This document shows, piece after piece, positions 6,462-22,800 of a stretch of 24,179 nt of DNA (position 1 is the first letter of the stretch; each line of letters starts with the position of its first letter). The notes beneath the pieces are model-generated. The model was not told the DNA's origin and did no database searches. It was given only the letters and a program-made list of their open reading frames with translations. The translations under genes and the position numbers were made by a program. The DNA is from Candidatus Iainarchaeum sp. Lineage in GTDB: Archaea > Iainarchaeota > Iainarchaeia > Iainarchaeales > 0-14-0-20-30-16. The stretch lies in assembly GCA_028710695.1 (NCBI GenBank), contig JAQTTP010000011.1:1-24179 (forward strand). The letters run 5' to 3'.

Positions 6462-7224
6462 TTGTTTTACTCCGCTTTTTAAAGGCAATATAGTCTTGGA
6501 ATATTCTTTTATCCAAATAAGTAAGAAATTCATATGCAACTTCAACATCCTCATCTGTAATGTTTATTGGCCTATTTACTTTTATCTGCAAAAATTTTTC
6601 TGGGTTTATAGGGGGTTCAAAAATATCGTAAAATGCTTTGAGAGCCGTTTTCTTATCTAAAGGATATATTTCTTTTGTTGCAAGAGCATATAATGCCCCA
6701 TATATGCACCATTTCATCATGAGTATTCTGCCGTCTTGGTCCAAATTCTTGTTAATTAGTAACTTTCTTGCTTGATAATTAAGAGAATTTATCACCCTTA
6801 CTGCCTCAATAATTATTTCTGATTTTGAAAATTTTGTTGACTTAAAATAGTTTTCTCCAATCAATTGATTACCATATAGTTCTATTTCTTTTTGCATATA
6901 TAGTCCACGGTTATTATGCCAAAAGACTTCTTTTCTTATTGCTGGCACATCGTCACAACTATGGACATTTATATCAGTTATAACCCCTTTTTCGGCATAT
7001 TTCTTTTTTATTTTCTTCAGCTTTTTTAATAAACTAATATCTGGCTTTTTAATAACTAATAATATATCAAAATCGCTTTTTATACAAAAATCTTCATTCA
7101 ATGTACTACCATAAACAGTTGCACTAAGTATTTGATCTTTTAGATCAGTTAGTAGATCTTGTTTTATATCCTGCAAAATTTTCTCTCTATTGCTTTTGTT
7201 TTTTATCTTTAGATCTAAAGTCAT
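6451..7224 (-). CDS. Pol-beta-superfamily nucleotidyltransferase with a C-terminal helical domain (KNTase/ANT-like architecture)
   Basis: Minimal NTase signature YGSTLNEDFCIKSDFDILLV (G-S ... D-x-D), followed by about 150 aa predicted helical. I prefer the ATG at 7224 (GAGGA 5 nt upstream) over the listed TTG at 7236. The 3' end overlaps the MetRS-like gene by 11 nt. Confidence 0.7.
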   Translation of the reverse strand: MTLDLKIKNKSNREKILQDIKQDLLTDLKDQILSATVYGSTLNEDFCIKSDFDILLVIKKPDISLLKKLKKIKKKYAEKGVITDINVHSCDDVPAIRKEVFWHNNRGLYMQKEIELYGNQLIGENYFKSTKFSKSEIIIEAVRVINSLNYQARKLLINKNLDQDGRILMMKWCIYGALYALATKEIYPLDKKTALKAFYDIFEPPINPEKFLQIKVNRPINITDEDVEVAYEFLTYLDKRIFQDYIAFKKRSKTNGF

Positions 7225-8196: not shown

Positions 8197-11100
8197 TTAA
8201 TATAATCTCTTCACAACTTCTTCTACAACTTCTTCTGGGAACTCTTCTTTATCCAGAACTTGTCTTATTTCTTCTTTTGTGTATTTGGCTTTTACTGGTT
8301 TAAGTTTGTTTACTAGCTCTTCGATTTTGTCTTTGTATTTAGAATAAACATCGCCTTCAAAATTGGTTTTTATTAATGCTTTCTTTTTGTCATCTAAACT
8401 TAATTCGTTGTGGCTCTCTTCCTTTATCTGTTTATCCTTAACTTCTACTTTTTCTCTCATTGCGGAAATCTTAGACTCCAAAACCCTGATCTTTTGCTCT
8501 AACTCAGTTTTCTGTTTCTGGAATTCTTCTTGAGTTATTTTCTGTTGGAACATATCTCTTGTTAATTGTGATAAAGTTTTCTTCGCAGTTTCCAGTTCAG
8601 TTTCATATTCTTCTATGCTCTTTCCTTTTTGGGCTTTGTGCAAAATCTTTCTTACTCTCCAATAAATTATTCCAGCAATTATTGCTCCAATTATTACTAA
8701 TAAAATAATCAGCCAAATAGTTGCAGAGAACAAGGGGCTCACAAACCCAAGATCTTTTTCTACATTTACGGTATTTCCCAGATCATCTTCTCCAGAAAAA
8801 TTAATTGAGGCATTTCCAAATAATGGAATTCCATAATCTGCCTCATAAATTCCATCCGTATTTTTTTCGAATAAAACATTCTCATCATCTACTGCTAAAG
8901 AAATTGTATTTGCATCATAGCTCAGCCCATTTTCATAATTTATCCTCACTTTCAAATTTGTTTGGAGATAACTTCCATCCTCTCCAGGATTAACCATTTC
9001 AATATTCAATTTATTGCTTAGCTTGAACTCTTTTGTTTTCTTTGCACTTACTAGAACCCCATTATATTCTGCTTGTGCAACAAAATCAATTGATTTTTTG
9101 TCGCCAGTCTTTTCATTAAGCGCATATAGCCCAATGAACCTGTTTTTATTAGCAGTATCTTGTGTTAACTGTATTTGTTTTCCATCATCCAAATAAACAA
9201 ATAAAGGTTTTATTTCTTTTTCACTTTTTATCTTTACTTCTATTGGAATTTCTTGGCCATAATTTATTGTAGTTATTTTTTCATTTGGTTCTACAATTTC
9301 CAAATCAATTATTCCAGTTACATTTTTTACTTCATATTCTTTTGATTTGTATGTTTTAGAAACATAATTTGTGTATTTGTCTGTAACATCAAATTTGAAA
9401 TATAATATTCCTGTTTCAACATCTTTGTCGCTTATGGAATAATCCAAGTAGGCAATAAAACAAGTCTGCTCTTTTTCTAGAGAATATTCTTTCTTTTCAT
9501 ACCCTTGTAGAATAATTTTTCCGCCATTTATATCTGAAGAATAATTCTCGCTATCTTTATCTTTAAAACATACATTTACAGAGTTTATTTTTGAGCCCAA
9601 CGAAAAAGTTTCTTTTCCGGGTTCTCCGGCAAAAGAAGTATCCAATTCCAATATCGGAACAAGCTCTTGTGGCACAATATATATTTCCACACTTTTCTTA
9701 GATTTTAGGTTCAAGCCACCAGTAGACACGCTTGCAGATACTTCTACAAAGTTCTTTGCATCATTGTAAATATTTCCAATAAAGGTTCCCTCATAATTTC
9801 CACTTGATGTCTCTGGCAGAGAAAACACAACACCATCTTTTAGTTGTGCAGTAACTGTTGCGCTAGTAATTGCTTTTCCAGCATTGTCCAATAATTGCAC
9901 ACGGATTTTATATTCATCGTTCCTTAAAATGTCCGCATTCACAAGGGGCTCTTTAATTATAATATTCAGATTCGCACTTACAATATCAATACTCTTTGTT
10001 TTTTCTATCCAACTTCCTTTGTCATCTTTTACTTTCAACTTGATTTCATAGTCTCCTTCTTTCTGGTATGTGTGTTTCAAGCTTTTTGTTGTCCCTTTTG
10101 TTGTACTATCACCGAAATCCCATTCATAGGAAACAGTTCCAGCACCAGAATAAGTATAATCTGCTGTAAGAGTAACCTCTTCCCCTACTTGCGCTTTATC
10201 TGGACCAGATATTGTTAGTGTAGAGAAATACCCTTGCACAGTACCTTTGTCAGCAAAGGCCTCATCTCCTGCTTGATTATTGTTCGGAGTTATAGAGCAC
10301 TGAACTTCTGTTCCTTGCGGGCATAAAGCAGGAGTACACTTAAACTTGGATGCAATTTCCCCAGTTTTCACAACCCCATTCAAGTACCATTTATACCCCA
10401 AGCTTATTCCAGAAGATGGATCATCAGCATCACTCTTTCCAGAGTTCTGACAAGAAATTTCAGAATCAGGATATGGTGTAGTAGGACTAACTGCAACACC
10501 AGTAACTGTTGGCTTTGAGTCAATTATAGAAAAATCAAGTTCTTTAGTTGAACTTAAAATAGTATCATTACATACAATAGTCACTTTCTTTGAGCCTGTA
10601 CCCAAATCTAAAGCATTAAATGGGCCAAGTTCCATTTCTTTTTGTTCCCAGGTTGCACCACTATTATTTGTTGCGGATTTAGTTCCAATTGTTGCAGTGC
10701 AAGTAAGTGCACTTCCACCTGTATCATCTGTATTGTCTTTCACATTCAAAAGAACATTAAAAGAATGATTCTTCCCTACCTGTGTTACTCCTTCAGACCC
10801 GCTATTTATATCATAAATCACTGGAGTTTCCATTACTGGATTTCCAGAAAGAACTGATATTGTTTCAGACCCAGACCAATTAACTACTGGATCTGGGTTA
10901 CATACCCCCATTTTCATTTCACAAACAGCCCAATTAAAAACATCTTGTTCTCGGGCGGTATTACTTTGTTTAAGGTGGAAAGTTAGGGTGAAATCTCCTG
11001 AAATCGCCACTTGCTTAATTCCAAAACTATTGAAATATTTATTATTAGGATCATAACAAGCTTTATTATCACAATTAGAAATATTCTCAGAAACACCAAC

Positions 11101-11346
11101 TTTATCTAAATCAGTAGGTAAAGAAAAATAATTTTGATTATCGGAAATTGTTAGCCGATATTTAACTGGATCTGCAATAAATCCATCAAAACTAAACTTC
11201 ACAGTTACATCTTGAGAGTCTGTAAAGATTTGGTTTCCGTTGGATGGATTTAGAACTTCTGAGGAAATTAGGGAAACTGAGAAAGAAATGCCTATTAAGA
11301 ACCAAAAAAAGAATAAGAAAAATGACTTTATAATCAAATTTGTCAT
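8197..11346 (-). CDS. Large type I membrane surface protein (1049 aa) with PKD/Ig-like domains and a charged coiled-coil cytoplasmic tail
   Basis: N-terminal signal/anchor (FFLFFFWFLIGISFSVSLI). PKD signature YEWDFGDSTTKGTTKSLKHTYQKEGDYEIKLKVKDDKGS. Long beta-rich ectodomain. C-terminal TM (IWLIILLVIIGAIIAGIIYW RVRK), then a K/E-rich heptad-like tail of about 150 aa. A TATA-like TTTAAATA is centred about 26 nt upstream of the ATG. Confidence 0.8.
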   Translation of the reverse strand: MTNLIIKSFFLFFFWFLIGISFSVSLISSEVLNPSNGNQIFTDSQDVTVKFSFDGFIADPVKYRLTISDNQNYFSLPTDLDKVGVSENISNCDNKACYDPNNKYFNSFGIKQVAISGDFTLTFHLKQSNTAREQDVFNWAVCEMKMGVCNPDPVVNWSGSETISVLSGNPVMETPVIYDINSGSEGVTQVGKNHSFNVLLNVKDNTDDTGGSALTCTATIGTKSATNNSGATWEQKEMELGPFNALDLGTGSKKVTIVCNDTILSSTKELDFSIIDSKPTVTGVAVSPTTPYPDSEISCQNSGKSDADDPSSGISLGYKWYLNGVVKTGEIASKFKCTPALCPQGTEVQCSITPNNNQAGDEAFADKGTVQGYFSTLTISGPDKAQVGEEVTLTADYTYSGAGTVSYEWDFGDSTTKGTTKSLKHTYQKEGDYEIKLKVKDDKGSWIEKTKSIDIVSANLNIIIKEPLVNADILRNDEYKIRVQLLDNAGKAITSATVTAQLKDGVVFSLPETSSGNYEGTFIGNIYNDAKNFVEVSASVSTGGLNLKSKKSVEIYIVPQELVPILELDTSFAGEPGKETFSLGSKINSVNVCFKDKDSENYSSDINGGKIILQGYEKKEYSLEKEQTCFIAYLDYSISDKDVETGILYFKFDVTDKYTNYVSKTYKSKEYEVKNVTGIIDLEIVEPNEKITTINYGQEIPIEVKIKSEKEIKPLFVYLDDGKQIQLTQDTANKNRFIGLYALNEKTGDKKSIDFVAQAEYNGVLVSAKKTKEFKLSNKLNIEMVNPGEDGSYLQTNLKVRINYENGLSYDANTISLAVDDENVLFEKNTDGIYEADYGIPLFGNASINFSGEDDLGNTVNVEKDLGFVSPLFSATIWLIILLVIIGAIIAGIIYWRVRKILHKAQKGKSIEEYETELETAKKTLSQLTRDMFQQKITQEEFQKQKTELEQKIRVLESKISAMREKVEVKDKQIKEESHNELSLDDKKKALIKTNFEGDVYSKYKDKIEELVNKLKPVKAKYTKEEIRQVLDKEEFPEEVVEEVVKRLY

Positions 11347-11398: not shown

Positions 11399-12220
11399 GT
11401 GGAGTTTAAAGTAATAATTAATGAGAACGCAACTAAATTAGATGCAATTTGGAGCGGTCTAGGGCCATACTCACAAAGATTCGTAGCAAGATCTTCTATT
11501 TTATTTCAATTTGATAAGAACATGTCAAAACTATTACTTACAAGAGATCTAATAATGGGCTCTTGGCCTGAGTTTATGTCCCATTATTTATTCAATAAAA
11601 AAACAACTGACACAAATACAAAACTTGCAAAGAAACTATTAGATAAAACAAAAGTTCCAGATTGGAACCTAAAAAGAAAAATACTGAATTCAAAAAAGCA
11701 AGAGTTAGAAATAATTATTTTAAAAAACTTAGAAAAAATTAATTTTTTCTTCAAAAATATTATTGGGCATGAAATAGATAATGTATCTATTTTTTTGGCA
11801 TATTCTGCAGATGGAGAATTTGGCTTTGGGGGTTGTTGTTTGCCAACAAAGGAACCAGCAATAATGCTACGATTGTGCAAGTCCTCAAAAATAACTAACA
11901 TTTCTATAATTGTTCATGAATTAATGCATCTCGCAATAAGAAATTGTAACGAAAGAAATAAACTTAAAACGATTGGGCACGAAGCAGAGGAAGCACTATT
12001 TGATTTGCTTTGTGCAATGTTCCAAAATGAAAACAAGATAGATTATAAAAAAACCATAAAACAAGACATTGCTGATAGAGATGGATACCACAAAAAATAC
12101 ATTTATGAAATCTATAAAATGATAAAACCAATTTTAAACGGTAAAGAAGACCTTGTTTGGAAATATATTGATTGGGAAAAGTTAAAAGCCATTAAAAAAG
12201 GTGAGAAAAATCATAACTAA
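11399..12220 (+). CDS. Hypothetical protein with an HExxH zinc-metallopeptidase motif
   Basis: IIVHELMHLAI, followed by GHEAEEALFD as a possible third ligand region. GTG start as listed, so the start is uncertain. Confidence 0.5.
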   Translation: MEFKVIINENATKLDAIWSGLGPYSQRFVARSSILFQFDKNMSKLLLTRDLIMGSWPEFMSHYLFNKKTTDTNTKLAKKLLDKTKVPDWNLKRKILNSKKQELEIIILKNLEKINFFFKNIIGHEIDNVSIFLAYSADGEFGFGGCCLPTKEPAIMLRLCKSSKITNISIIVHELMHLAIRNCNERNKLKTIGHEAEEALFDLLCAMFQNENKIDYKKTIKQDIADRDGYHKKYIYEIYKMIKPILNGKEDLVWKYIDWEKLKAIKKGEKNHN

Positions 12221-12806
12221 TTTTGACACTCTAATTAAATTACCAATACCCTGCAAAAAAATACTTTCAAAAGAAATAACAGAAAAAAACATTAAAAATT
12301 TAAAAAAACTTTTTGAATTAACCAAAGCTAACGGAAAATTAGGACTAAAATATAGTATGAAATCTTATGATACCTATTCTAACTGCAAATTACCAACAGT
12401 GGTTTGGAAAACAAAATCAGGACATTGCTTTGAACTGTCACTATTTTTACTGGCTTGTTTAAAATATTTGGGCTTTAATGCCTATTATTATGAAATGCCA
12501 AACTTCAAAAAGTGGGATCATGCGTGTGTTTTAATAAAAGTGAACGGTAAATCAATATCTGTGGATCTTGGAAGAAAAATATTTAATGCAAAATACAAAG
12601 GATATAATAGACTAACTAAAAAACAAACTCTCGGGAACTATTTTATAAATTGTGCACATATGCTTTATCCTTGGAAATGTAAATCTAAAAAATTAAGTAA
12701 AAAAGACAACATAACACAAAGACAAAAAGCAATTAAGTTTGCAAAACTAGGTCTAAAATATTATCCAAATTCGAAAAGAGGAAAAATTATACTTACGGGA
12801 GATTAA
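12201..12806 (+). CDS. Transglutaminase-like cysteine-protease-fold protein
   Basis: Candidate Cys-His-Asp core: SGHCFELSLFLLACLKYLGFNAYYY, then WDHACVLIKVNGKSISVD. GTG start overlapping the preceding gene by 20 nt. Confidence 0.55.
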   Translation: MRKIITNFDTLIKLPIPCKKILSKEITEKNIKNLKKLFELTKANGKLGLKYSMKSYDTYSNCKLPTVVWKTKSGHCFELSLFLLACLKYLGFNAYYYEMPNFKKWDHACVLIKVNGKSISVDLGRKIFNAKYKGYNRLTKKQTLGNYFINCAHMLYPWKCKSKKLSKKDNITQRQKAIKFAKLGLKYYPNSKRGKIILTGD

Positions 12807-12820
12807 AAGTAAAGGAAGAG

Positions 12821-13576
12821 TTACTTAACAACATCTAATTCTTTTTCGTGTTTTTTTGCGAATTTGTAAGCCCATTTTAAGTAATCGTCAAAAGTTTTGC
12901 CTTTTTTGTAAATATCTTCTGCATATTTATCTTCAAAATAATGTTGTATTGTTCTTTTTCCTATTCTATTCTTATAAAAACAATCATAACTATAATGTGG
13001 TCCGGGGAGAATTTTATTAAATTTTTTGTCATTTAAAATCACAGAAACCAAAATTTCAGAGAGAATCCATTCAATATGTGGCCCGCCATATTTTTGTTTT
13101 GAAACATCAGGGAATAGTTCTCCAAACTTTTTGAAATATAGCAGATGAGTTATCTCGTGTGCAGCAATTCCAAAAACTCTTTGTGTGGGCCAATCGTATG
13201 GAATATAAAAATTCATTTTCTCTATGTTTCGTGGAAATACTTTGCATAAAGAAAGATACGCTTCAATTTTTTCTGGGTTCTTAAACCAAGGGGTGCCAAT
13301 CACATCAGACAAATTAGTCATAAACTCTTTTTGTATTTTGTTCCATTCTTTTTGATAATGACCAACATTAACTTTTGTTTTTCTTCGTTTAGTCTTCCAC
13401 TCACCTTTTAACCAGCCAGTTATATCTAACTTTGGTTCTTTAAGAATAGAGTAACTATCTAAAAAACGAAACTTAAAAGACTGATTACTGTGTTGCAAAA
13501 AATGATTAAAAGCCCAGATTTCTTTCTTTATTGGAACTATTTTGAATTCAACTTTTGGATAAGACATAAAGATCAC
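12821..13576 (-). CDS. HExxH motif protein (putative zinc metallopeptidase), last gene of the candidate RiPP operon
   Basis: GIAAHEITHLLYF. GTG start forms a GTGA overlap with the kinase stop; an alternative ATG lies at 13567. Only 14 nt separate its stop from the convergent gene ending at 12806. Confidence 0.5.
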   Translation of the reverse strand: MIFMSYPKVEFKIVPIKKEIWAFNHFLQHSNQSFKFRFLDSYSILKEPKLDITGWLKGEWKTKRRKTKVNVGHYQKEWNKIQKEFMTNLSDVIGTPWFKNPEKIEAYLSLCKVFPRNIEKMNFYIPYDWPTQRVFGIAAHEITHLLYFKKFGELFPDVSKQKYGGPHIEWILSEILVSVILNDKKFNKILPGPHYSYDCFYKNRIGKRTIQHYFEDKYAEDIYKKGKTFDDYLKWAYKFAKKHEKELDVVK

Positions 13577-14493
13577 TTTTTATGCCCTAATATTTTTATT
13601 TCTCCAGGATTTAAATTAGGGGTCATTTTGTCACCAGTTTTTAAAAATTTTGTTCTGTTTTTACTGCTCAATTTAAAAATTAAAAAGATTATTCTATTTT
13701 CATATTGTTTTTCCCGTATTTTACTATTTGATTTTATGCAACGTGTGTACATTTCCATAAGAAAATATATTGAATAAAATAAGTATAAATCATTAGTTGA
13801 AATTAATTTATTTAGTTCTTTTTTTCCATAGGCCTCAAAGAAAGCATCAGTAATTATTGACATTTCAAAGTTGCCGTGGCTTCGCACAAACATTTTAGAC
13901 AATATATTAGTTAATTCAAAATATTTATCCCCGACAATAAATTTATCCCAGTCTATGATTTTTAGTTTTTCTCGGTGTAGAATTATATTTTTGGGGGAGA
14001 AATCGCCATGTAATAGCCTTTTTTGAGGGCTGTAATTTATAAACCTTTCTCGCCATATTTTTTTTAATATTTTTATATACTTTTTGTTTTCGGGGATACA
14101 AATTTCGTCAAGCTTATAGTTTAGTAAATCAGACCAGGATTTAAATTTGTTGCCTTTATATAAATAACGTTTATGGGTAATGTTATGTATTTTTCTGTAC
14201 ACCACACCCATTTTTTTAAACACTCTGATCTCATCTTTTAAACTTAGTAAATTCAAATTTAGTTGGTTTCCTTCAATAAAAGGGTATGTTATGGCATTAG
14301 TTGAAATTATTATATTGGGCGTAAAAAATGGTTTAAATAATGGAAAAAAAGCATAAATCTTTTTAATATTTAAGGGGGGGCCAAATGTTTCTCTATATAC
14401 ATAGTTCTTATTTTTAAATTTAAAGAGATATACATTATTGGCAAAGCCGTTTGCAATATATTCTTTATCTATAACATTTATTTTTGTTTGCAA
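13573..14493 (-). CDS. Aminoglycoside-phosphotransferase (APH) / choline-kinase-fold kinase
   Basis: Catalytic loop LLHGDFSPKNIIL (H-G-D-x4-N) and metal-binding IIDWDKFIVGD. N-terminal GFANNVYLFKF nucleotide-loop-like segment. TTG start with GGAGG 6 nt upstream. Confidence 0.75.
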   Translation of the reverse strand: MQTKINVIDKEYIANGFANNVYLFKFKNKNYVYRETFGPPLNIKKIYAFFPLFKPFFTPNIIISTNAITYPFIEGNQLNLNLLSLKDEIRVFKKMGVVYRKIHNITHKRYLYKGNKFKSWSDLLNYKLDEICIPENKKYIKILKKIWRERFINYSPQKRLLHGDFSPKNIILHREKLKIIDWDKFIVGDKYFELTNILSKMFVRSHGNFEMSIITDAFFEAYGKKELNKLISTNDLYLFYSIYFLMEMYTRCIKSNSKIREKQYENRIIFLIFKLSSKNRTKFLKTGDKMTPNLNPGEIKILGHKK

Positions 14494-15055
14494 TAAATCC
14501 CTCCACCGCTTTAGAAATTTTATTGCTGTCCGCAGGCAGCAACAAAGATAACCTCATCCACAACATTTTTCTCCACTCATATAGTTTGGCAATTTGTGAA
14601 ATGTGATCCGTAGTTTCTATAAACTTACCTGGCAAGTTAAGTCCTTGCAGTTTTTTACATACTGTTTTGCCAGCCAAAAGAAAATTTTTATTTTTGTAAT
14701 CTCTGGGACTTAACCAGCCATAATAAAATCCAAATTCGATGATTTGCAAATCGTTATTTTGATCTATATCTTTTGCTTTTTTTATTGCACTTAAATGCAC
14801 ACTCAGTATTTTCCTAGAAATTACTTCATCTTCAAAATTGGGCACCATTTTTATTTCTTTTTTCAGATATTGTAATGCAAAAATGCTTTCTAACATATAG
14901 TTTAAATATATTTGTAATTTCTTATTTTCGGCATACTCTTTTGTATTTAAATATTCTTCGTAGCCAAATGCATTTTCGATAAGGCCTTTTGCTTTTTTTA
15001 GAGAATATCCTTTTTTTATTTCAATTTCACTAGACAATTGTGAATATATGTCCAT
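14465..15055 (-). CDS. Hypothetical protein (about 196 aa, mostly helical by composition)
   Basis: No recognisable motif. I prefer the ATG at 15055 (MDIYSQLSSE...): GGAGG lies 7 nt upstream and the start is 1 nt after the upstream stop. The listed start is 15109. Confidence 0.5.
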   Translation of the reverse strand: MDIYSQLSSEIEIKKGYSLKKAKGLIENAFGYEEYLNTKEYAENKKLQIYLNYMLESIFALQYLKKEIKMVPNFEDEVISRKILSVHLSAIKKAKDIDQNNDLQIIEFGFYYGWLSPRDYKNKNFLLAGKTVCKKLQGLNLPGKFIETTDHISQIAKLYEWRKMLWMRLSLLLPADSNKISKAVEGFIANKNKCYR

Positions 15056-15056
15056 A

Positions 15057-15476
15057 TTAGGGCCTCCGTAATCGTTCAATAACATGTGGAAATATGTTCG
15101 CAGCGTCAATCTTTTTTTCTCTAGGTAGTCCGTGCAACTTATTTTTTAGGCCTGGTTCGTCATAAAACATTTTTTGAATAATTCTTACTATTCGCAATCC
15201 AAAAATATTATTCCCATATTTTTTGCTTCTACTGAAAAACATTATCTTCCCATTAACTTCCTTGACCCATCCGCCCCATACAAATTGTTCTGTGTCTTTA
15301 GAACCAACAGATTTATGTAATATTTCAGTATGATTATCTCCTTTATTACCCGTCATGACCACTATCGTGTTATTTTTTGGCAAATACAAAAAAATAAATT
15401 TTTGGGGGGCTTCAGTAACAAATAAATTAAGTTTTATTTTATAACCCAGATAATTAAACTCTTTAATAAGATTCAT
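15057..15476 (-). CDS. Hypothetical protein (about 139 aa)
   Basis: No recognisable motif. I prefer the ATG at 15476 (MNLIKEFNY...), which has GAGGT 8 nt upstream, over the listed TTG at 15485. Overlaps the radical SAM gene 3' end. Confidence 0.5.
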   Translation of the reverse strand: MNLIKEFNYLGYKIKLNLFVTEAPQKFIFLYLPKNNTIVVMTGNKGDNHTEILHKSVGSKDTEQFVWGGWVKEVNGKIMFFSRSKKYGNNIFGLRIVRIIQKMFYDEPGLKNKLHGLPREKKIDAANIFPHVIERLRRP

Positions 15477-17013
15477 ATTTTTCAACCTCTGGACAACGTG
15501 GATCTAAAATACCTTTATTTTTTTTATAAAATGTTAAACAACCCAGACCACAGCAGGATTTGTGTTTACAACTTTTGCAATGACTGTTAGTTAAACCTTG
15601 TTTAAAAAACGTTGGTTTTTTTAACAATATTTCTTCTAGGCTATTAGTTTTTATATTTCCAATTGCATATTTTTCAGGCAATAACAAACAACCATTTACT
15701 TCCCCAAAGGCATTAATGCTAATACGCCTGTTAAAAGCACTACAAGAAATGTCAGACCGCATTTCTGTAGTAGGTAAACCAAAACGAAATGCAAACATTA
15801 CAGTGTCAAATAATATTGCAATATCGGTGTGATGCACAGTTAATTCATTGTAAATTTCAATATATTGACTATAGGGAATATGTAAATTTTTTGCATTTAA
15901 GCCAGACCCTATTGGAAGAAAATAGTTCAATTTTATTTTTTTTACTCCGACCTCTACTAAATTATCAACTAATTGCATAATATTTTTTTTATTAATTGCA
16001 TTTACTACAATTACGATAGTAGGATTCAAGCCATTATTTATTATCTTTTTTATATTCTCTAAAACTCTGTTTTTTTTATCTACACCTCTTAAAAACAGAA
16101 AGTCTTTTTCGTCTATTGAATCAAAACTAACCCCAAAATTATTAATTTTTTTTAGAACGCTTATGATTTTTTTATTAATAATTGTTCCATTAGTATTCAA
16201 ATGTATTGCAAATCCTAAAGACTTAGCATAATTGACAATTTTATAAAAATCAGGGTGCAATGTTGGTTCTCCACCAGTAATTGATACAAAACAAAGACCC
16301 TTTTTTTTTGCATCATTAAAAACTGTTTTTATATATTTAAAATCCAGATTATTGCCCTCTTTTTTATTTATATTGGCATAACAGAATTTACAGTTCATAT
16401 TACAATGAGTAGTTATTTGCATATCAAGAATGTCTGGAGAATTAATATCAGATTCATATAAAAAAAATTTCTTTTTAGTTATAGAAAAACAAAAAATGCC
16501 ATCAGTTATAAGATTAATTATAATCTTCTTGGCCGCCAAGCCATATTTTTTATAAAGGTCTTTAATTTTTGTTGTCTGTAAATCTTTAACCAACCGAAAA
16601 CTATTTTTATCTAATTTAATCTTCTTTGTATCTTTATAAATCAAATAATAATCTTTATTTTTCTTAAACAATTTAATAAAGTTTTTTGTTGGAACCAAAT
16701 AATTATCATCAGTAAATATAATCTTACTCTTCTCTATCAACACGTACGCAGAATCTAGAAAATAATCATTAATATTTAATCCAATTATACTGGGGATGTT
16801 AAATTCTCTACTTACAATAGCAACATGGCTTAATATGCCGCCTTCTTTTAAAACTATTCCTTTAATAAATGGGAAATAGTCAAGAATGGAATTAATACTT
16901 CTTTCTAAGTAAATGATTTTTCCGGCATATTTTTGAGGGTTTAATTGCGAGTTATATTTTTTTAAAACCCCAAAAATGGTTCCGCTATAATTTAGTTGCC
17001 CTTCAAAGATCAT
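15463..17013 (-). CDS. Fusion enzyme: PEP-utilizer mobile (phosphohistidine swivel) domain + PqqD/RRE-like segment + radical SAM + SPASM domain
   Basis: aa about 8-100: GKIIYLERS...IKGIVLKEGGILSHVAIVSREFNIPSIIG (PEP-utilizers swivel domain with the conserved SH His). aa about 118-175: DYYLIYKDTKKIKLDKNSFRLVKDLQTTKIKDLYKKYGLAAKKIIINLITDGIF (RRE-like). CNMNCKFC (C-x3-C-x2-C, nt 16381..16404) and ITGGEPTLHP. C-terminal seven-Cys SPASM pattern CSAFNRRISINAFGEVNGC ... CKSCKHKSCCGLGC. Confidence 0.85.
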   Translation of the reverse strand: MIFEGQLNYSGTIFGVLKKYNSQLNPQKYAGKIIYLERSINSILDYFPFIKGIVLKEGGILSHVAIVSREFNIPSIIGLNINDYFLDSAYVLIEKSKIIFTDDNYLVPTKNFIKLFKKNKDYYLIYKDTKKIKLDKNSFRLVKDLQTTKIKDLYKKYGLAAKKIIINLITDGIFCFSITKKKFFLYESDINSPDILDMQITTHCNMNCKFCYANINKKEGNNLDFKYIKTVFNDAKKKGLCFVSITGGEPTLHPDFYKIVNYAKSLGFAIHLNTNGTIINKKIISVLKKINNFGVSFDSIDEKDFLFLRGVDKKNRVLENIKKIINNGLNPTIVIVVNAINKKNIMQLVDNLVEVGVKKIKLNYFLPIGSGLNAKNLHIPYSQYIEIYNELTVHHTDIAILFDTVMFAFRFGLPTTEMRSDISCSAFNRRISINAFGEVNGCLLLPEKYAIGNIKTNSLEEILLKKPTFFKQGLTNSHCKSCKHKSCCGLGCLTFYKKNKGILDPRCPEVEKYESY

Positions 17014-17908
17014 ATAATGCGCCCCTTAGGAAATCAAATAATTTTTTGTTATTATATATGTGTCTTTGTTTTTTAAAAGAAAGCATACTTTTTATTATAG
17101 AGTCTTTTTTAAGGCCATATTCAAGCTTTAAACCGTTAATATTAGATAAGGCTTGATCTTGAATCACTAATCCAAGGTTATATTTAGTAATAATTTGAGT
17201 ATTAAGGGCTTGCTCAAGATTTGCAGGATGTATGTAAATATATGGTTTATTGAGATACATGCTTTCAGAAAGAGAACACAGCCCCGGATGTGTTACAATT
17301 ATTTCATTTTTTGCAATAATTTGTGAAAAATGCTTACGGCTCTTACTAAATACTAGCTGTGATTGAAGTATATTTTCTTTATCCCATATTGCGTTTTTGG
17401 TTTTATAACTGCCAATAATTGCCAAGCCAGAGCCATTTGTTTTTTTAATTTTTGTTATATAATTATCAACAAAAAGAAATTTATTGTATTTGTCGCCCCA
17501 GGGCGTTTTATTTTTTGTCAATGATGACAAAAAACAGAAATCGGATTCCCTTATGCCCTTCTTAAATAAATTAAGGCGCTCTTGAAATAAATTATGCTTA
17601 AATAGGTAATTCCAATAATCCCCCAAATTATCTATAAAAATGTCTCTTCCACTAGTAGGGATATTTCTTGGGTCTATTATATGTATTACAATGTCTTTTT
17701 TAGTTACTTTATAATTTGGGTCATAACATAAATGATGGCAGTAATTTTTTTTTATAAAATCATGTCTTTCTATAGAAGGGGTTTTTAAAATACATTTTCT
17801 ATTTGGAAATAAGATCAGTAAATTTTGAACTATTTGACCCAACATTACTGCAGGACCAAATCCGTTCATTGATAAAAAACACACAATTGCCATACAGGTC
17901 TTATCCAT
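17003..17908 (-). CDS. GT-B-fold glycosyltransferase-like protein (GT1/GT28 MurG-like C-terminal signature)
   Basis: IVTHPGLCSLSESMYLNKPYIYIHPANLEQALNTQIITKYNLGLVI resembles the THGG-x-x-S-x-x-E ... P ... D/E-Q-x-x-N-A ... G donor-binding region of GT1/GT28 enzymes. The start ATG overlaps the stop of the upstream 40-aa ORF (ATGGATAA). Confidence 0.6.
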   Translation of the reverse strand: MDKTCMAIVCFLSMNGFGPAVMLGQIVQNLLILFPNRKCILKTPSIERHDFIKKNYCHHLCYDPNYKVTKKDIVIHIIDPRNIPTSGRDIFIDNLGDYWNYLFKHNLFQERLNLFKKGIRESDFCFLSSLTKNKTPWGDKYNKFLFVDNYITKIKKTNGSGLAIIGSYKTKNAIWDKENILQSQLVFSKSRKHFSQIIAKNEIIVTHPGLCSLSESMYLNKPYIYIHPANLEQALNTQIITKYNLGLVIQDQALSNINGLKLEYGLKKDSIIKSMLSFKKQRHIYNNKKLFDFLRGALYDL

Positions 17909-18023
17909 CTTGAGAAGGATCTTGACAATGTGGTGCAGAACAATAATTTTCTTTTTTATATGTTAGTTTATTATTTTCTTCGTCTTTTTTTATTTTGCTC
18001 TTTTTTATAACTTTTTTATCCAT
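17901..18023 (-). CDS. Small ORF (40 aa), candidate RiPP precursor peptide: MDKKVIKKSKIKKDEENNKLTYKKENYCSAPHCQDPSQDG
   Basis: Hand-translated; it is below the ORF-track length cutoff. A perfect AGGAGG at 18031..18036 lies 7 nt upstream of the ATG (18021..18023). The stop overlaps the next gene start by 8 nt. The ORF fills an otherwise unexplained 126-nt gap in a tightly packed operon. The Lys-rich N-terminus and Cys-containing C-terminus resemble a leader/core layout. Confidence 0.5.
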   Translation of the reverse strand: MDKKVIKKSKIKKDEENNKLTYKKENYCSAPHCQDPSQDG

Positions 18024-18030
18024 TTTTATT

Positions 18031-18036
18031 CCTCCT
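18031..18036 (-). promoter_or_regulatory. Shine-Dalgarno site (AGGAGG) for the 40-aa ORF, overlapping the TAG stop of the upstream surface-protein gene
   Basis: The minus strand reads GTT AAT TAG GAGG AATAAAA ATG. This is the same 6-8 nt spacing seen at other internal genes in this window. Confidence 0.6.
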
Positions 18037-20920
18037 AATTAACAGTATAAATTGCATAACCTAAATCATCTTTGTTATTTATGTTTCCGGTCATTGGTTC
18101 GTCTATAAGGCCAAATACTACGCTTGCATTTTGACCTTTAGTTTGAACTGAAAATGCATTTGCTGTAGATTGACCTATCTGGTTTGAATTTGAACCTATT
18201 GCATAGGGAACATAATTATAAGTCTTACAAGTTGGGCTGTTTACTTTCGCATAACTTGTTTCTGTGTATGCAATAAAATCTGCGCCAACTAGTTCAGAGA
18301 TTATCATACAAACTTGCTGGTTGTACAAAGGAACTGCAAAGTAATTTAACATACTTACTTGTAAAGAATATGTTTTATTTTTATTCAAAGCTGTGCCGTC
18401 TGCAGGGTTAAATACGGCAGATAATCCTTTTGATACATCCACTGCTTCAAAGCTTGCGCCAGTTTCATAACCAGCAATTACTTTGCTTTCATCAGTATTC
18501 ATCCATGACAAATATGCTTTTCCTTTTGATAATAAGAAATATTCACCATCTGCACCAAATTCTGTTGGCATAATCTCTTGCTCTAGAACTAATTCATCTA
18601 AAGCAGGAACATCTACTAATTGGCAGTAAACATTCTGATAAAGGACTTGGCCATTAGACATTGGTTTTAATAAGCCGTTCTGAGAAACATAACATAAATT
18701 CAAATCATTCAAAGGAACATCGTATAGATTTGTGATGTGGACTTTGATTTTTAATTTATTATCTTTTGGAACTTTTCCATATAATGTAACACCCCAAAAA
18801 CCTGCACCATCATTATCGCCCATGTCTTGCCACATGGATACTAAACCATTTCCTGCCGCATAAAAGATGTCTTTGGTTTCTATTTGCTTAGAGTCTAATT
18901 GCTGGCCGTTAAGCATTAACATTATGTTGTAAATCTTTTCTGTGTTCTCAACTGTTGTGTGGAACTCGCTCTCTTTTGTGGAGTTAGGCTCGATCTTGGG
19001 AATAAGTTCAGTAATTGTTGTGTGGCCTTCTGGCTGACCATCAAAGATAACTAGCTCTGTTGAGCTTGCTGTTACTTCTATTCCCTCTAAATAGATGCTC
19101 AGATTGTTGGTAACATAAACTTGGAAGTAAACTTCGTAATCTAATGGAACTGTGTGAGGAACATCTACTGTTGCAGTTACGTCAGCAGGAGATACTTTTG
19201 CTAAACGGAAGATATTGGATTCTACTGTTTTATCGCCATCAGAAGCTGTTACTTTGACATCGGAGTAGCCTTGTGATGTAATGTTACAATACAATACTTT
19301 GTTTTCAATATTACAAATTGCCGGGCCATTTAAAACTAAATAATTGTAAGATAGTTCTTGACCTTCAGAATCAGAGAACATACCTAAAAGATCTTTTGAA
19401 AAAGATAAATTTGAACCTGTGGAAGTTTTACCAATAATTTTGCCAGAGAATACCGGTGCCAAGTTATCTTTAGACCAGGATACAGAGATTTCTTTATCTA
19501 CTTCATACTGGCCATCAGAAGCAGAAACTGACAAAGTAGTGGAAATTGGGTATATGGTGGTTGAACAGGATAGGTTAGGTCCTACTAGTCCACAGTTTAA
19601 ACCACCATTATCTTTTATTTCGAAATATAAAGTAGAGGAAGGGTTGTCCACATCAGACACAAAATTCGCTAAGTTTAGATTCAAGGTTTGGCCTTCCTCC
19701 AAGTTATTAATTGGAATGGAGTTCCAAGAAGGAGCATCATTTACATTTGAAACATTTACTTTTAGATCACCAAAGGCAGTATTGCCTTGTGGGTCTTCTG
19801 CTTTAATCATAACAACAAAAGCACCATAAGCATCCTTTACAAGAGAGCAGTTTAGTGTGAAATTATCTACTTCACAAGATATTCCACTTGCGGGAGCAAT
19901 ATAATCAACTGATAAAGATAATTCGTTTGTAGTGTTATTTGGATCTTGAACATAAGGTAACAAGTTAATTGATCCTATTTGTGTGTCTTCCTGAACATTT
20001 ATTGTTGGAAGATCTGTAAAATAAGGAGAGCTACTGTTTTTTGTTATCTCAATTGGTGCTTGCTCGTATTGATTTGTGACTATGTCCTTTACTTCCAAAG
20101 TATAATATTTTGTGCCTTCTGAAATCTGGTTACAAGTTAGAACTGACCCAGAGATATTACAATTTGCGGGGTTCTCTAACAATTTGTAAGTTAATTTGCC
20201 TAAGGCGAAATCGTAATAGTCAATATAATTTTTTAAATCAACTAAAATGCTTGATTCATTTGTTTGAATAATTACTGGATCAATAGAAACCTCTTTTATT
20301 GGATAAAGAGTAACTTTTAAGCTCCTCAAAAAAGGGCTTAGATAATCGTGATCTGTGCTAAGGGTTATTTCTACATTTGCTGAAGATGTCTTTCCTAAGA
20401 AAGCATAGTTGTTGTATTGGGAGTCATTAACTTTAAAGCTTACTTGTGTTCCTTCAAGAACTAAAGCATCTTCTTCAAGTTTTACTGCGTAGATTAAGGA
20501 TAAAGAATCGAATTTCAGGTCTTCTAATGTAAAGGAGCCTTTTGGGTTATATTCCATATAGGCCTTTTTAGAATCTTTTGAAGTATAAGATAGTTTTATT
20601 CCGTGCTCTTCTTGGCTTAAACTAGACCAGTTTCCCGAGTAAAATAGATATTGGCCATCGGGAACAAAAGAGAAATTAAATTCCTTTGGGCTTGAGGCGG
20701 GCAAAGGCATTGCATCAGGCAGATATCTTTGTATAGGAATGTCTCTCTGAGGGATATATTGTGGTACCTTGTGAGGAACCTTTGGAATGAATCCATCAGC
20801 ATAAGTAAGGGAGAAAATCAAGAAAAATGCGAAAAATAATAGTATAAAAGATAGGATTTTATGGATTGGTACTTTCATGGGGCGTTTTACCGCTGACCCA
20901 TTCCGATATAGAACTCCCAT
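18035..20920 (-). CDS. Large secreted/surface protein (about 960 aa) with repeated Ig/cadherin-like beta domains
   Basis: Signal peptide KILSFILLFFAFFLIFSLTYADG. Repeated beta-rich modules, including a cadherin-like boundary NVSNVNDAPSW. No C-terminal TM. Start uncertain: the ATG at 20920 lies about 27 nt downstream of TTATAAAT (leaderless candidate); the ATG at 20878 and the listed 20989 are alternatives. Confidence 0.75.
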   Translation of the reverse strand: MGVLYRNGSAVKRPMKVPIHKILSFILLFFAFFLIFSLTYADGFIPKVPHKVPQYIPQRDIPIQRYLPDAMPLPASSPKEFNFSFVPDGQYLFYSGNWSSLSQEEHGIKLSYTSKDSKKAYMEYNPKGSFTLEDLKFDSLSLIYAVKLEEDALVLEGTQVSFKVNDSQYNNYAFLGKTSSANVEITLSTDHDYLSPFLRSLKVTLYPIKEVSIDPVIIQTNESSILVDLKNYIDYYDFALGKLTYKLLENPANCNISGSVLTCNQISEGTKYYTLEVKDIVTNQYEQAPIEITKNSSSPYFTDLPTINVQEDTQIGSINLLPYVQDPNNTTNELSLSVDYIAPASGISCEVDNFTLNCSLVKDAYGAFVVMIKAEDPQGNTAFGDLKVNVSNVNDAPSWNSIPINNLEEGQTLNLNLANFVSDVDNPSSTLYFEIKDNGGLNCGLVGPNLSCSTTIYPISTTLSVSASDGQYEVDKEISVSWSKDNLAPVFSGKIIGKTSTGSNLSFSKDLLGMFSDSEGQELSYNYLVLNGPAICNIENKVLYCNITSQGYSDVKVTASDGDKTVESNIFRLAKVSPADVTATVDVPHTVPLDYEVYFQVYVTNNLSIYLEGIEVTASSTELVIFDGQPEGHTTITELIPKIEPNSTKESEFHTTVENTEKIYNIMLMLNGQQLDSKQIETKDIFYAAGNGLVSMWQDMGDNDGAGFWGVTLYGKVPKDNKLKIKVHITNLYDVPLNDLNLCYVSQNGLLKPMSNGQVLYQNVYCQLVDVPALDELVLEQEIMPTEFGADGEYFLLSKGKAYLSWMNTDESKVIAGYETGASFEAVDVSKGLSAVFNPADGTALNKNKTYSLQVSMLNYFAVPLYNQQVCMIISELVGADFIAYTETSYAKVNSPTCKTYNYVPYAIGSNSNQIGQSTANAFSVQTKGQNASVVFGLIDEPMTGNINNKDDLGYAIYTVN

Positions 20921-20943
20921 ACTTATATATATATGAAGGATAG

Positions 20944-20951
20944 ATTTATAA
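20944..20951 (-). promoter_or_regulatory. TATA-box-like element (TTATAAAT on the minus strand) upstream of the surface-protein / peptide operon
   Basis: Centred about 27 nt upstream of the ATG at 20920. The same octamer occurs at the same distance from the SPOUT gene ATG (22037..22044). Confidence 0.4.
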
Positions 20952-20992
20952 CCCTTATGTATTAACAATCCTAACTGAGAAGCCAACAAAGG

Positions 20993-21502
20993 TTAGGAAT
21001 CCAAAGTTTGGCCTAAGAATTTACACATTATGCAGTTGTCAACATACTTATTTCCAAATTTGTATTGTTTCTTTACACAGCCAGTTTTTTTAAACCCTAA
21101 TTTTTCATATAATCTTATTGCTGGTTTGTTTGTTGAAACAATATTCAAATATATTAATTTTATTTTTTTCTGTTTTGCAACAGATAAAAGTTTTTTCAAT
21201 AATTTTGAGGCAATGCCATTTCGCCTATAATCTTTTAAGACATTTAATTGACTCACATATAAGGTGTGATTTGTCTTGGGTAGTTTTCCGATACTAGATT
21301 CAATTAATCCAACTACTCGACCATTTAATTCTCCAGCAAAATTAATGCCATCTTCGATCAATTGGGTTGTTCTTTTTTTTGCTTGCCCATTTGATAAAAT
21401 GACTTCTGGAACCGCAAAAGTGTTTTCTGTTCTCCATTCATTGTAGAGCTTTTTTATATCTTTCCAATCATTTATTTCGATTTGTCTTATTTTTAGAACC
21501 AT
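20993..21502 (-). CDS. GNAT-family N-acetyltransferase
   Basis: YRRNGIASKLLKKLLSVAKQKKIKLIYLNIVSTNKPAIRLYEKLGFKKTG. I prefer the ATG at 21502 (MVLKIRQIEINDW), which has GAGG 8 nt upstream, over the listed 21553. Confidence 0.8.
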   Translation of the reverse strand: MVLKIRQIEINDWKDIKKLYNEWRTENTFAVPEVILSNGQAKKRTTQLIEDGINFAGELNGRVVGLIESSIGKLPKTNHTLYVSQLNVLKDYRRNGIASKLLKKLLSVAKQKKIKLIYLNIVSTNKPAIRLYEKLGFKKTGCVKKQYKFGNKYVDNCIMCKFLGQTLDS

Positions 21503-22013
21503 GTATAACGCCTCTACCAAAAAATCCTTTTTGCCGTAAGATCTCATGAACAACTACTGGAATTACTGTGTGCAAAGTATAAAACTTTGTTTGATTTAAC
21601 ATAGGAACACTGACAATATTATCTAATGCAGCAATTTTTGCTTTACTTAACCCGCCAACTTCTGTGCCAAAAACAATTACATACTTTCCTTTAGAGAAAT
21701 CTGTTTTGAAAATAGATTGACCAAAATTAGGGGAAGTACCTACAATAGTATATCCTGCTTTTTTAAGTGCTTTTACCTTATCGAAAAAATCATCTGTGTA
21801 GTTAATATTTATTGAGGGGGAAGAAGATTTAAACTCTGGAAACCAAGAACTAATTATTCCAGAAACTTTGGGATGATCATGCCTTATTGATTTTCCAGTA
21901 ATATCAAGTGTTCTATTAGTAGCAATTGAAAGATGTACAAGTTCAGCTAAATCACGTGGGTCTTTTATGGTGTCCACTAATATTCGCAGATCAGTGTCTT
22001 TTTTTAGAACCAT
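21468..22013 (-). CDS. SPOUT-superfamily (SpoU/TrmH-type) RNA methyltransferase
   Basis: YVIVFGTEVGGLS and IVSVPMLNQTKFYTLHTVIPVVVHEI match SpoU motifs 2 and 3. Size is about 180 aa. TTATAAAT is centred about 27 nt upstream of the ATG. Confidence 0.65.
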   Translation of the reverse strand: MVLKKDTDLRILVDTIKDPRDLAELVHLSIATNRTLDITGKSIRHDHPKVSGIISSWFPEFKSSSPSININYTDDFFDKVKALKKAGYTIVGTSPNFGQSIFKTDFSKGKYVIVFGTEVGGLSKAKIAALDNIVSVPMLNQTKFYTLHTVIPVVVHEILRQKGFFGRGVIHGSKNKTNRNK

Positions 22014-22218: not shown

Positions 22219-22719
22219 TTATTTTGTAATCCCCCATAGCATAAGGTCAACATATTTGTTTCCTTTTTTTCTGTATTTTTTTCTAACGCCTTCTAATTTA
22301 AGCCCTGCTTTTTCCATTGCCCTACTTGATGCAGGGTTATCAGAGTCATTATCTGCTTGAATTCTATAAAGTTTTAATTTTTTAAATCCAAATTCTATTA
22401 TTTGTTTTATTGCTTCTGTTGCAATTCCTTTATTCCAAAATATTTTTCCAATAAAAAAGCCTAAATCATAACAGCCTTTATCTTCATTTGGTTCTTCTAA
22501 CATTACACTGCCCGCAATTTCATTATCAAAAATAATAGTAAAAGAGTAAGACTTTTTTGTTTTCCTGCCTTTGATTCCGTCGTTTACATCTTTTTTCATT
22601 CGACTTAATGGGCATGGATAGGAATAACCAGAAATCTGTTTTATGACATCTTTATCACTAATCAACTTTTGCAATGCTTTTGCATCACTTAGTTTTGGTT
22701 TTCTAATTTCTACTTTCAT
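22219..22719 (-). CDS. GNAT-family N-acetyltransferase (RimJ/RimL-like)
   Basis: IFWNKGIATEAIKQIIEFGFKKLKLYRIQADNDSDNPASSRAMEKAGLKLEG. I prefer the ATG at 22719 (MKVEIRKPKL): TTTATAAA (22742..22749) is centred about 27 nt upstream. Confidence 0.8.
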   Translation of the reverse strand: MKVEIRKPKLSDAKALQKLISDKDVIKQISGYSYPCPLSRMKKDVNDGIKGRKTKKSYSFTIIFDNEIAGSVMLEEPNEDKGCYDLGFFIGKIFWNKGIATEAIKQIIEFGFKKLKLYRIQADNDSDNPASSRAMEKAGLKLEGVRKKYRKKGNKYVDLMLWGITK

Positions 22720-22800
22720 TTTTAATACAAAGAAATAAAACTTTATAAACCCTACTTGCATGCAAAAAATATTTATACTACTTTAACATATTTTATGCAC

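Follow-up and report, generated by a model that had tools for sequence, protein, structure and literature searches.

A co-conserved radical SAM gene cassette of Iainarchaeota-like archaea that probably makes a modified peptide

The window (the whole stretch of DNA that was analysed) is a 24,179-nucleotide (nt) contig, JAQTTP010000011.1, of a Candidatus Iainarchaeum metagenome-assembled genome, which belongs to a DPANN archaeon of the phylum Iainarchaeota, and its GC content is ~30%. The minus strand carries seven close-packed open reading frames (ORFs) running from 18023 down to 12821. The six upstream ORFs encode a 40-amino-acid (aa) peptide, a glycosyltransferase, a radical SAM/SPASM enzyme with an additional phosphohistidine-type swivel domain, two proteins of 139 aa and 196 aa and an APH-fold kinase. 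They were found to form a conserved cassette which probably makes a peptide that ribosomes synthesize and that is then modified post-translationally (a RiPP), in DPANN archaea of the Iainarchaeota-like kind. An earlier note on this DNA had described a tightly packed minus-strand operon of eight genes and had read it as a RiPP pathway. The ORF map agreed with the strand and the packing and set the number of genes at seven, and the RiPP reading was upheld for the six genes named above and not for the seventh, which encodes a protein with an HExxH motif. No RNA elements were detected by Rfam and no tRNAs were found. The seven genes are as follows.

17901..18023, minus strand: putative precursor peptide gene, 40 aa, MDKKVIKKSKIKKDEENNKLTYKKENYCSAPHCQDPSQDG; hypothetical protein MDD4984052.1 at NCBI
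17003..17893 (alternative 5' end 17908), minus strand: GT-B-type glycosyltransferase, 296 aa when read from the MAIVCF start that is conserved; weak Pfam matches and a GT1 structure profile match
15463..17013, minus strand: four-domain maturase, 516 aa, with swivel, RiPP recognition element (RRE)-like, radical SAM and SPASM domains; from Pfam, family alignment, AlphaFold2 (AF2) and Foldseek
15057..15476, minus strand: orphan 139-aa protein, specific to the cassette; orthologues lie 3' of the radical SAM gene elsewhere
14465..15055, minus strand: orphan 196-aa all-helical protein, proposed partner of the swivel domain; from its relatives and an AF2 model
13573..14493, minus strand: APH-fold kinase, 306 aa, TTG start; PF01636 at 7.3e-9 and catalytic motifs
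12821..13567 (alternative 5' end 13576), minus strand: HExxH protein, 248 aa when read from the MSYPK start that is conserved; conserved motif; a backbone gene whose membership of the pathway is doubtful

Gene layout and co-conservation

A TAGGAGG sequence lies 7 nt 5' of the ATG of the 40-aa ORF. Most of the junctions were as the earlier note had described them. The glycosyltransferase and maturase genes overlap by 11 nt (17003-17013) and the maturase and 139-aa genes by 14 nt (15463-15476), a gap of 1 nt separates the stop codon of the 139-aa gene from the ATG of the 196-aa gene, which has GGAGG 7 nt upstream, and the kinase gene begins with TTG (14493), with GGAGG 6 nt upstream and an overlap of 29 nt with the 196-aa gene. 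Two junctions were redrawn. The glycosyltransferase gene most likely starts at 17893 because the MAIVCF N-terminus is common to all the orthologues and to the NCBI annotation, and with this start the 8-nt overlap with the peptide gene that had been proposed (ATGGATAA) is replaced by a 7-nt spacer. Similarly, the HExxH gene most likely starts with the ATG at 13567 (MSYPK), as all eight homologues begin with M-[SYH]-YP[KR] or MYPK; this ATG sits 5 nt past the kinase stop codon, in place of the GTGA overlap suggested before.

The order peptide, glycosyltransferase, maturase, 139-aa protein, 196-aa protein and kinase was found to be kept in the window and at the loci L002/3, L004/9 and L005, with 35–59% identity, the full order being visible only as far as each metagenome contig reaches. 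The contigs of the three full-length maturase relatives carry the small ORF, the glycosyltransferase, the radical SAM enzyme, the ~139-aa and ~196-aa proteins and the APH-fold kinase in that order, and the glycosyltransferase gene directly follows the peptide gene in 8/8 loci. Thus, the glycosyltransferase, 139-aa, 196-aa and kinase genes are all co-conserved with the radical SAM gene. The recurrence of the same order in independent metagenome contigs, together with the purifying selection on the small ORF described below, confirmed that the operon is real and that its gene order is beyond chance. The cassette is rare and patchy, with ~8 loci over all the collections searched and ~6 relatives of the maturase among 5.8 billion clustered proteins. 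When 185,579 species-representative genomes were scanned with the maturase alignment, distant radical SAM proteins (23–28% identity) were recovered and no member of the family.

The small peptide and its radical SAM enzyme

The N-terminal ~21 residues of the 40-aa peptide are Lys-rich and variable, and the C-terminal 19 residues are conserved.

17904..17960, minus strand: conserved core, residues 22-40, YKKENYCSAPHCQDPSQDG; from the alignment of eight peptides

The alignment of eight distinct peptides of 40–45 aa gave the core consensus YKKE[NK]YC[SAT]APHCQ[DE]xxQD[GA], in which Y22, K23, K24, E25, Y27, C28, A30, P31, H32, C33, Q34, Q38 and D39 are invariant. The pairwise nucleotide identity over the 19 core codons was 0.89, 0.90 and 0.59 at codon positions 1, 2 and 3, respectively, and a Shine-Dalgarno-like motif was present 6–9 nt 5' of every orthologous small ORF. 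The codon-position pattern and these motifs together indicated purifying selection at the protein level on a translated peptide. The homologous loci therefore hold a conserved small ORF, seen as eight distinct sequences with an invariant core. Ser or Thr is nowhere invariant in the core, position 29 being S, A or T and position 37 variable, and the only invariant hydroxyls are those of Tyr22 and Tyr27. The invariant candidates for a cross-link are the two Cys, two conserved acidic positions, the two Tyr and one His.

The association of this core with its neighbours was also checked by an enzyme-independent test, in which 241 million metagenome records were scanned with a degenerate DNA pattern coding for KExYCxAPHCQ alone. 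The scan returned six loci. The glycosyltransferase gene adjoined the peptide gene in 6/6 of them, and the radical SAM gene came next wherever the contig extended past the glycosyltransferase gene. Residues Y22, K23, Q38 and D39 were invariant though they lie outside the search pattern. In viral contigs, a relaxed core pattern gave just four chance matches, in unrelated ORFs, and no virus-borne cassette was found.

In the 516-aa maturase, the following domains were delimited.

16714..17013, minus strand: PEP-utilizers swivel domain, residues ~1–100 (PF00391), with the motif GGILSH63VAIVSREFNIPSI
16483..16701, minus strand: RRE-like (PqqD-like winged-helix) domain, residues ~105–177, predicted by AF2 and Foldseek
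15493..16431, minus strand: radical SAM core and SPASM domain, from Pfam, alignment and hhalign

Profile searches matched Radical_SAM (PF04055, 3.6e-25), PEP-utilizers (PF00391, 3.8e-10) and SPASM (PF13186, 3.1e-6) in this protein and APH (PF01636, 7.3e-9) in the kinase, all of which had been anticipated by the earlier note. The CxxxCxxC motif corresponds to C204/C208/C211 of the window protein and is kept in the full-length relatives and partial in two fragments. The seven-Cys SPASM motif is complete and its Cys residues are invariant (C424-x12-G437-x4-C442, C479xxC482x5C488x3C492 and C507). The hhalign comparison with other radical SAM/SPASM enzymes covered residues 184–512 with an E-value of 2.3e-46. 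His63 of the swivel domain is kept in all the full-length relatives as well as in P0011 and P0142, two relatives of the 196-aa protein that are taken up below, and the surrounding motif matches the swivel regions of phosphoenolpyruvate (PEP) synthase, enzyme I (EI) of the phosphotransferase system (PTS), rifampin phosphotransferase (RPH) and PigC in NCBIfam.

An AF2 model of the maturase, built from a 7-sequence alignment, had a mean predicted local distance difference test (pLDDT) score of 74, and its N-terminal 190 residues scored 73–95 per 10-residue block. Strands were predicted at residues 105–108, 112–118, 121–126 and 130–134 and helices at 136–144, 150–157 and 160–170 (block pLDDT 75–95). 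In the model, these four strands followed by three helices over residues 105–170 are the PqqD/RRE topology. The PqqD-like element of the earlier note was thus supported by the predicted structure only, with no sequence match to PF05402. When the model was compared with the Protein Data Bank (PDB) by Foldseek, SuiB (1.8e-14, 455 columns), SkfB and CteB (442–462 columns) were at the top, followed by an archaeal lipid synthase, PqqE, the anaerobic sulfatase-maturating enzyme anSME (7e-10, ~359 columns) and then the viperins. The SuiB/CteB alignments span 371–462 columns as against ~359 for anSME and PqqE. Clustering with the anaerobic sulfatase maturases was therefore not observed, as SuiB, SkfB and CteB outrank anSME. 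A PDB sequence-profile search also placed SkfB first and aligned CteB from residue 134, and the StsB sactipeptide-maturase model of NCBIfam aligned from residue 113.

None of the RiPP equivalog cut-offs of NCBIfam was reached. The best matches were NirJ2, a tungsten-enzyme maturase, archaeal MoaA, MftC and StsB with 95–115 bits against cut-offs of 265–625, and the scores and cut-offs of individual maturase models were 94.8/625 for StsB, 64.1/340 for PapB and 62.5/850 for AlbA. The maturase motifs, the structural ranking and the lack of an NCBIfam match above cut-off together indicated a peptide-maturase-like radical SAM/SPASM protein of no named family. Literature searches that paired swivel or PEP-utilizing domains with RiPPs or radical SAM enzymes yielded no account of a swivel-radical SAM combination, and the swivel fusion, the two orphan families and the set of glycosyltransferase plus kinase were likewise not found described. 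These results agreed with the earlier view that the combination matches no named RiPP class.

Associated proteins, proposed pathway and rival explanations

The Pfam matches of the glycosyltransferase to Glyco_trans_1_3 and Glyco_tran_28_C were weak and just below the cut-offs (21.6 bits against 22 for Glyco_tran_28_C). Its assignment to the GT-B fold by the earlier note held at the level of the family profile, which matched GT1 structures in the PDB, namely 8h5d (6.4e-6), YjiC, ALG13 and OleD, over the C-terminal nucleoside diphosphate (NDP)-sugar-binding region. The C-terminal NDP-sugar motif HPGxNSxSESLYLxKPxxxxPxxxEQ is conserved in the family.

Catalysis by the kinase would rely on H162-G-D164-x4-N169 and D181-W-D183. 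All three orthologues keep these motifs as HGDxSxxN and DWD, among them those of L005 and L009, where the kinase gene likewise comes after the 196-aa gene. The analogy with the kinases of class V lanthipeptide pathways that had been drawn earlier was given up. Like the class V lanthipeptide and thioamitide pathways, this cassette is of RiPP type and encodes an APH-fold kinase whose catalytic loop is intact, but the core here has no invariant Ser or Thr, no Pfam match to a HopA1-like lyase was obtained with any cassette protein, and the model of the 196-aa protein has no significant fold match in the PDB. The lack of an invariant Ser/Thr and of a lyase therefore ruled out kinase-driven dehydration of the class V lanthipeptide/thioamitide type as the logic of this pathway.

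The 40-aa, 139-aa, 196-aa and HExxH proteins gave nothing significant in Pfam or NCBIfam. The 139-aa protein also had no match above cut-off in PADLOC, and its match to Ntox43 was marginal (E 0.076). The sole PDB-profile match of this protein, a weak one to RNase P protein (E 0.005), was regarded as compositional. Its orthologues lie 3' of the radical SAM gene in L002, L005 and L004/L009, and the invariant residues include N48, H49 and T50, G68, G69 and W70, and Y87, G88 and N89. In L009 (6780-7201) and L004 (2657-3075), which come from different samples, the orthologue is frameshifted into ORFs of 95 aa and 67 aa; the split may reflect decay to a pseudogene, a sequencing error common to both contigs or programmed frameshifting.

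Only six credible relatives (E < 1e-10) of the 196-aa protein were found among 1.84 billion representatives, and Y32, Y35, Y50, K65, H87, W114, Y159, W161, R162, K163 and W166 are invariant among them. The AF2 model is all-helical with a pLDDT of 92 and a predicted TM-score (pTM) of 0.86, and its Foldseek comparison with the PDB gave no significant match (best E 0.54, TM at most 0.25). An analogy of the swivel domain and the helical protein with the DhaM/DhaL type was considered and dropped in the absence of a significant fold match. In two of the relatives, P0011 and P0142, a swivel domain is fused to the 196-aa protein. They are 43% and 34% identical to the window protein, respectively, and mutually diverged, and P0011 is 60% identical to the N-terminus of the maturase. 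The gene for P0011 lies at 6732-7685 of L021, with a NUDIX gene before it and after it an ORF with the kinase N-lobe only (truncated). This fusion in two relatives is the strongest hint at function, and it makes the 196-aa protein most likely a direct working partner of the phosphohistidine domain. A stand-alone swivel gene is also present in another radical SAM-SPASM peptide cassette, that of L021.

Among the known systems, CteB, SkfB, SuiB, PapB and QhpD are like the window enzyme in having an N-terminal RRE-like domain together with CxxxCxxC and a seven-Cys SPASM motif, and in the adjacent short precursor with Cys in its core. The window enzyme differs from these maturases by its extra N-terminal phosphohistidine swivel domain and by a core with only two Cys whose spacing is unlike the known motifs, and the glycosyltransferase, the kinase and the two orphan proteins are foreign to their pathways. 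The GGxxSHxAIxxRE His motif of the swivel is shared with PEP synthase, pyruvate phosphate dikinase (PPDK), PTS enzyme I, rifampin phosphotransferase, phenylphosphate synthase/HpeHI and PigC. Unlike the PEP-utilizing dikinases, the cassette has no ATP-grasp and no PEP/pyruvate TIM-barrel, and the swivel is fused here to an RRE-radical SAM enzyme or to the orphan helical 196-aa domain. Split multi-protein versions of PEP utilizers exist, such as the two-component Hpe kinase (PMC12167813). In kind, the cassette is an RRE/radical SAM-SPASM RiPP cluster, and none of the criteria applied placed it in a named family. Earlier work had already predicted clusters of the ranthipeptide and sactipeptide types in DPANN archaea (PMC12144867), so the statement of the earlier note that such a pathway would be unexpected in a small-genome archaeon did not stand.

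In the pathway that we propose, the RRE-like domain would dock the precursor, probably through a hydrophobic-x-YKKE stretch, and the radical SAM/SPASM domains would make a radical cross-link on the core. The cross-link would most likely be a thioether that joins the two invariant Cys to the two conserved acidic positions ([DE]35 and D39) or to residues nearby, as in ranthipeptides/QhpC, with a link of the Tyr27-Cys28 type as the alternative. The two Cys and the two acidic positions are compatible with Cys-to-carbon thioether bridges, though they are no proof of them. His63 of the swivel would carry a phosphoryl group and, with the 196-aa protein, form a phosphohistidine relay that phosphorylates the RRE-bound peptide or its sugar. 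Because the only invariant hydroxyls are those of Tyr22 and Tyr27, the closest precedent would be a phenol-type phosphorylation as in phenylphosphate synthase and rifampin phosphotransferase. The glycosyltransferase would add a sugar to the peptide, the APH-fold kinase would phosphorylate the sugar or a Tyr, and the leader would be removed by a protease that is not dedicated to the pathway, perhaps the HExxH protein encoded next to it. That the swivel, the 196-aa protein and perhaps the kinase make up a new phosphohistidine relay acting on a Tyr or a sugar of the RRE-held peptide, and that the product is a new class of cross-linked, glycosylated and phosphorylated RiPP, is a tentative proposal whose correctness we hold to be possible but doubtful.

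Several observations weigh against this pathway or against the more general RiPP reading. Every chemical step of the pathway is one that we infer. No ATP-grasp (PPDK_N) or PEP-binding (PEP-utilizers_C) domain that could load His63 was found in the cassette or the window; either the 196-aa protein or the kinase charges the relay in a new way, or the swivel has another role. The swivel fusion of L021, lying beside a truncated kinase, could be a decayed remnant and not a working fusion. At the sequence level, residues ~105–190 gave no PF05402 match and an hhalign E-value of only 0.28 against PqqD-bearing radical SAM enzymes, and the SPASM portion of the AF2 model is of low confidence. Viperin, MoaA and NirJ models match the radical SAM core too, with scores that stay under the cut-offs. 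The Cys-acidic spacing of the peptide core (C-x6-[DE] and C-x5-D) does not fit the CX3D motif known for PapB. Finally, no transporter or immunity gene was found in any locus, and the cassette is also without a dedicated protease.

The lack of a transporter or immunity gene is also what would be expected of a mycofactocin- or PQQ-like cofactor, for which the core, once cross-linked, would be cut down to a small redox molecule that bears a sugar or a phosphate and serves inside the cell. Such a product is further favoured by a core that stays invariant while the enzymes diverge to 35–47% identity, and by the adjacent invariant Tyr-Cys and the Glu-x-Tyr, which could seed a quinone or a cross-linked cofactor. 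The combination of an RRE, a radical SAM-SPASM enzyme, a glycosyltransferase and a possible peptidase matches the mycofactocin set (MftA-F), to which the small peptide and its conserved C-terminal core add further likeness, and MftC is among the top NCBIfam matches (4.8e-27) and the best match of the L021 radical SAM protein. The MftC score is, however, 95 bits against a cut-off of 265. The peptide ends in QDG or QDA and not in the Gly-Val-Tyr of mycofactocin, no flavin oxidase or creatininase-type peptidase (the MftD/MftE-type enzymes, of the FMN-oxidase and creatininase families) was matched in Pfam, and the glycosyltransferase is of the GT-B fold with GT1/GT28-like motifs. The distribution also argues against a lineage-wide cofactor, since the cassette is rare and patchy, being absent from all 185,579 species-representative genomes, and a close syntenic relative of the window holds a different cassette, which is typical of an accessory and not of an essential cofactor function. 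An intracellular cofactor is thus considered unlikely.

A substrate other than a peptide would make the small ORF regulatory or unrelated, with a viperin-, MoaA- or BlsE-like radical SAM enzyme, the glycosyltransferase and the kinase producing a modified nucleotide or sugar. The radical SAM core does score 97 bits on the prokaryotic viperin models of PADLOC and 82–97 bits on the viperin and MoaA models of NCBIfam, BlsE and viperins are in the PDB match lists, the glycosyltransferase weakly matches cytosylglucuronate synthase, and APH-fold kinases usually take small molecules. These matches, however, cover the shared radical SAM core only and lie below the curated cut-offs, whereas the enzyme has a complete SPASM and an RRE-like domain and its structural ranking prefers the RRE-bearing peptide maturases. 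Moreover, the small ORF is selected at the protein level and always adjacent, and the search with the peptide pattern gave these cassettes only, so we judge a non-peptide substrate very unlikely. Least probable of all is that the 40-aa protein is a metal-binding microprotein (through Cys28, His32 and Cys33), or else assists the enzymes as a chaperone or small subunit, and is not a modified substrate, which fits the context poorly. The invariant C-x-A-P-H-C could bind Zn, Cu or Fe and such invariance of a core is unusual among RiPPs, but in our judgement three ligands within six residues form no known stable metal site. Its size, its variable and Lys-rich N-terminal part and its place immediately upstream of an RRE-radical SAM-SPASM enzyme suit a precursor, and the other cassettes described in the next section carry comparable small ORFs, rich in Lys and containing Cys, whose cores are unrelated. 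A reading as a defence system was also tried and rejected, as PADLOC showed generic similarity to the viperin core only.

A RiPP is therefore the reading that we retain. If the cassette works as proposed, it would represent a new RiPP family and a new catalytic principle in which a swivel is fused to a peptide-binding radical SAM enzyme; if the relay exists, it would be the first PEP-utilizer swivel mechanism in peptide maturation. It would also add two protein families for which no relatives are known, and the fold predicted with confidence for one of these has no match in the PDB. With an invariant core of 19 residues, the system lends itself directly to a test by heterologous expression.

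The HExxH gene and the cassette hotspot

The HExxH family has nine members, and H137, E138, H141, E150, E166 and E171 were invariant when the eight homologues were compared. The protein had no Pfam or PDB profile match, and its SprT score was 12.6 bits against a cut-off of 175. In L019, L023 and L024, its gene occurs without an adjoining radical SAM cassette and is neighboured by genes for a PKD surface protein, an ABC transporter, NUDIX and GNAT proteins. The assignment of this protein as the leader protease of the pathway, made in the earlier note, was withdrawn, as the family occurs both without a cassette and beside three other types of radical SAM cassette. No independent window-type locus extends as far as the position of the HExxH gene. 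We conclude that it is a backbone gene of the lineage, probably co-transcribed and not co-inherited with the pathway. It may still act as a general leader peptidase for whichever cassette adjoins it, a role that we consider plausible without favouring it.

The site beside the HExxH gene was compared over the regions 12821-18036 of the window, 7700-10750 of L017, 2600-8100 of L021, 1-1511 of L029 and 500-4450 of L031. In L017/L018, the flanks are 70–83% identical to and syntenic with the window, and another cassette lies between a ~970-aa surface protein and the HExxH gene. The L017 cassette encodes a 43-aa peptide with seven Cys, a GNAT-radical SAM protein, whose best NCBIfam matches are the RiPP-maturase models FlmE/OhkG, CefB and PapB, and a separate 178-aa GNAT protein. 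In L021 and L029/L030, the cassette preceding the HExxH gene consists of a 35-aa peptide (...KCPDSKGCAK), a 262-aa protein, a radical SAM-SPASM enzyme, a 156-aa protein and a stand-alone swivel. In L031, the HExxH gene is followed by a Lys-rich peptide with two Cys, a 296-aa protein and a 677-aa radical SAM-SPASM enzyme. Each of these cassettes has a Lys-rich, Cys-containing small ORF, which is MKVIQKQKYKFNRGACVSGCERKYGDEGCPSDCNYCGHDCSKY in L017, ...KKLVSKCPDSKGCAK in L021 and MKKFVFKIKKIKKSTPSEYTCQRPGACGTP in L031. Thus, at least four unrelated radical SAM peptide cassettes were found at this site, between large surface-protein genes on Iainarchaeota-like contigs, and the site looks like a variable hotspot for RiPP cassettes.

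The exchange of one such cassette for another left a trace at the end of the kinase gene.

13576..13662, minus strand: recombination scar, the last ~28 kinase codons, GDKMTPNLNPGEIKILGHKK; homologous to the tail of the swivel gene

The kinase tail showed 54–56% protein identity to the tails of the swivel genes that precede the HExxH gene in L029 and L030, with homology also to L021, and the DNA alignment reaches to ~75 nt upstream of the HExxH start. The kinase of L005 is without this swivel-derived tail. We conclude from this homology that the window-type cassette replaced an L021-type cassette by recombination ~80 nt upstream of the HExxH gene, and that the scar marks where the cassette ends on its right-hand side. 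As a module, the cassette is thus accessory and can be swapped. Small-genome DPANN archaea therefore keep a variable, putatively peptide-modifying locus beside large surface proteins, which bears on the dealings of these episymbionts with hosts or competitors.

The surface proteins that flank the region are predicted proteins of ~1000 aa with PKD and cadherin-like domains, encoded at 8197-11346 and 18035-20989 on the minus strand and kept in L017 with 69–73% identity; a homologue of the PKD protein also precedes the cassette in L021. Two plus-strand genes converge on the operon, and neither is linked to the cassette elsewhere. The one at 11399-12220 encodes a 273-aa protein with HELMH and a Glu ~23 residues further on, and it is a backbone gene found also in L023 (44%) and L031 (78%). 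The other, at 12201-12806, encodes a 201-aa protein with very weak similarity to the transglutaminase core and to arylamine N-acetyltransferase. Either protein could be a peptidase acting on the peptide. Elsewhere in the window, a 441-aa ORF without a Pfam match lies at 5229-6554 on the minus strand, and four GNAT genes were found within the 24 kb, at 2754-3293, 3303-3815, 20993-21553 and 22219-22761.

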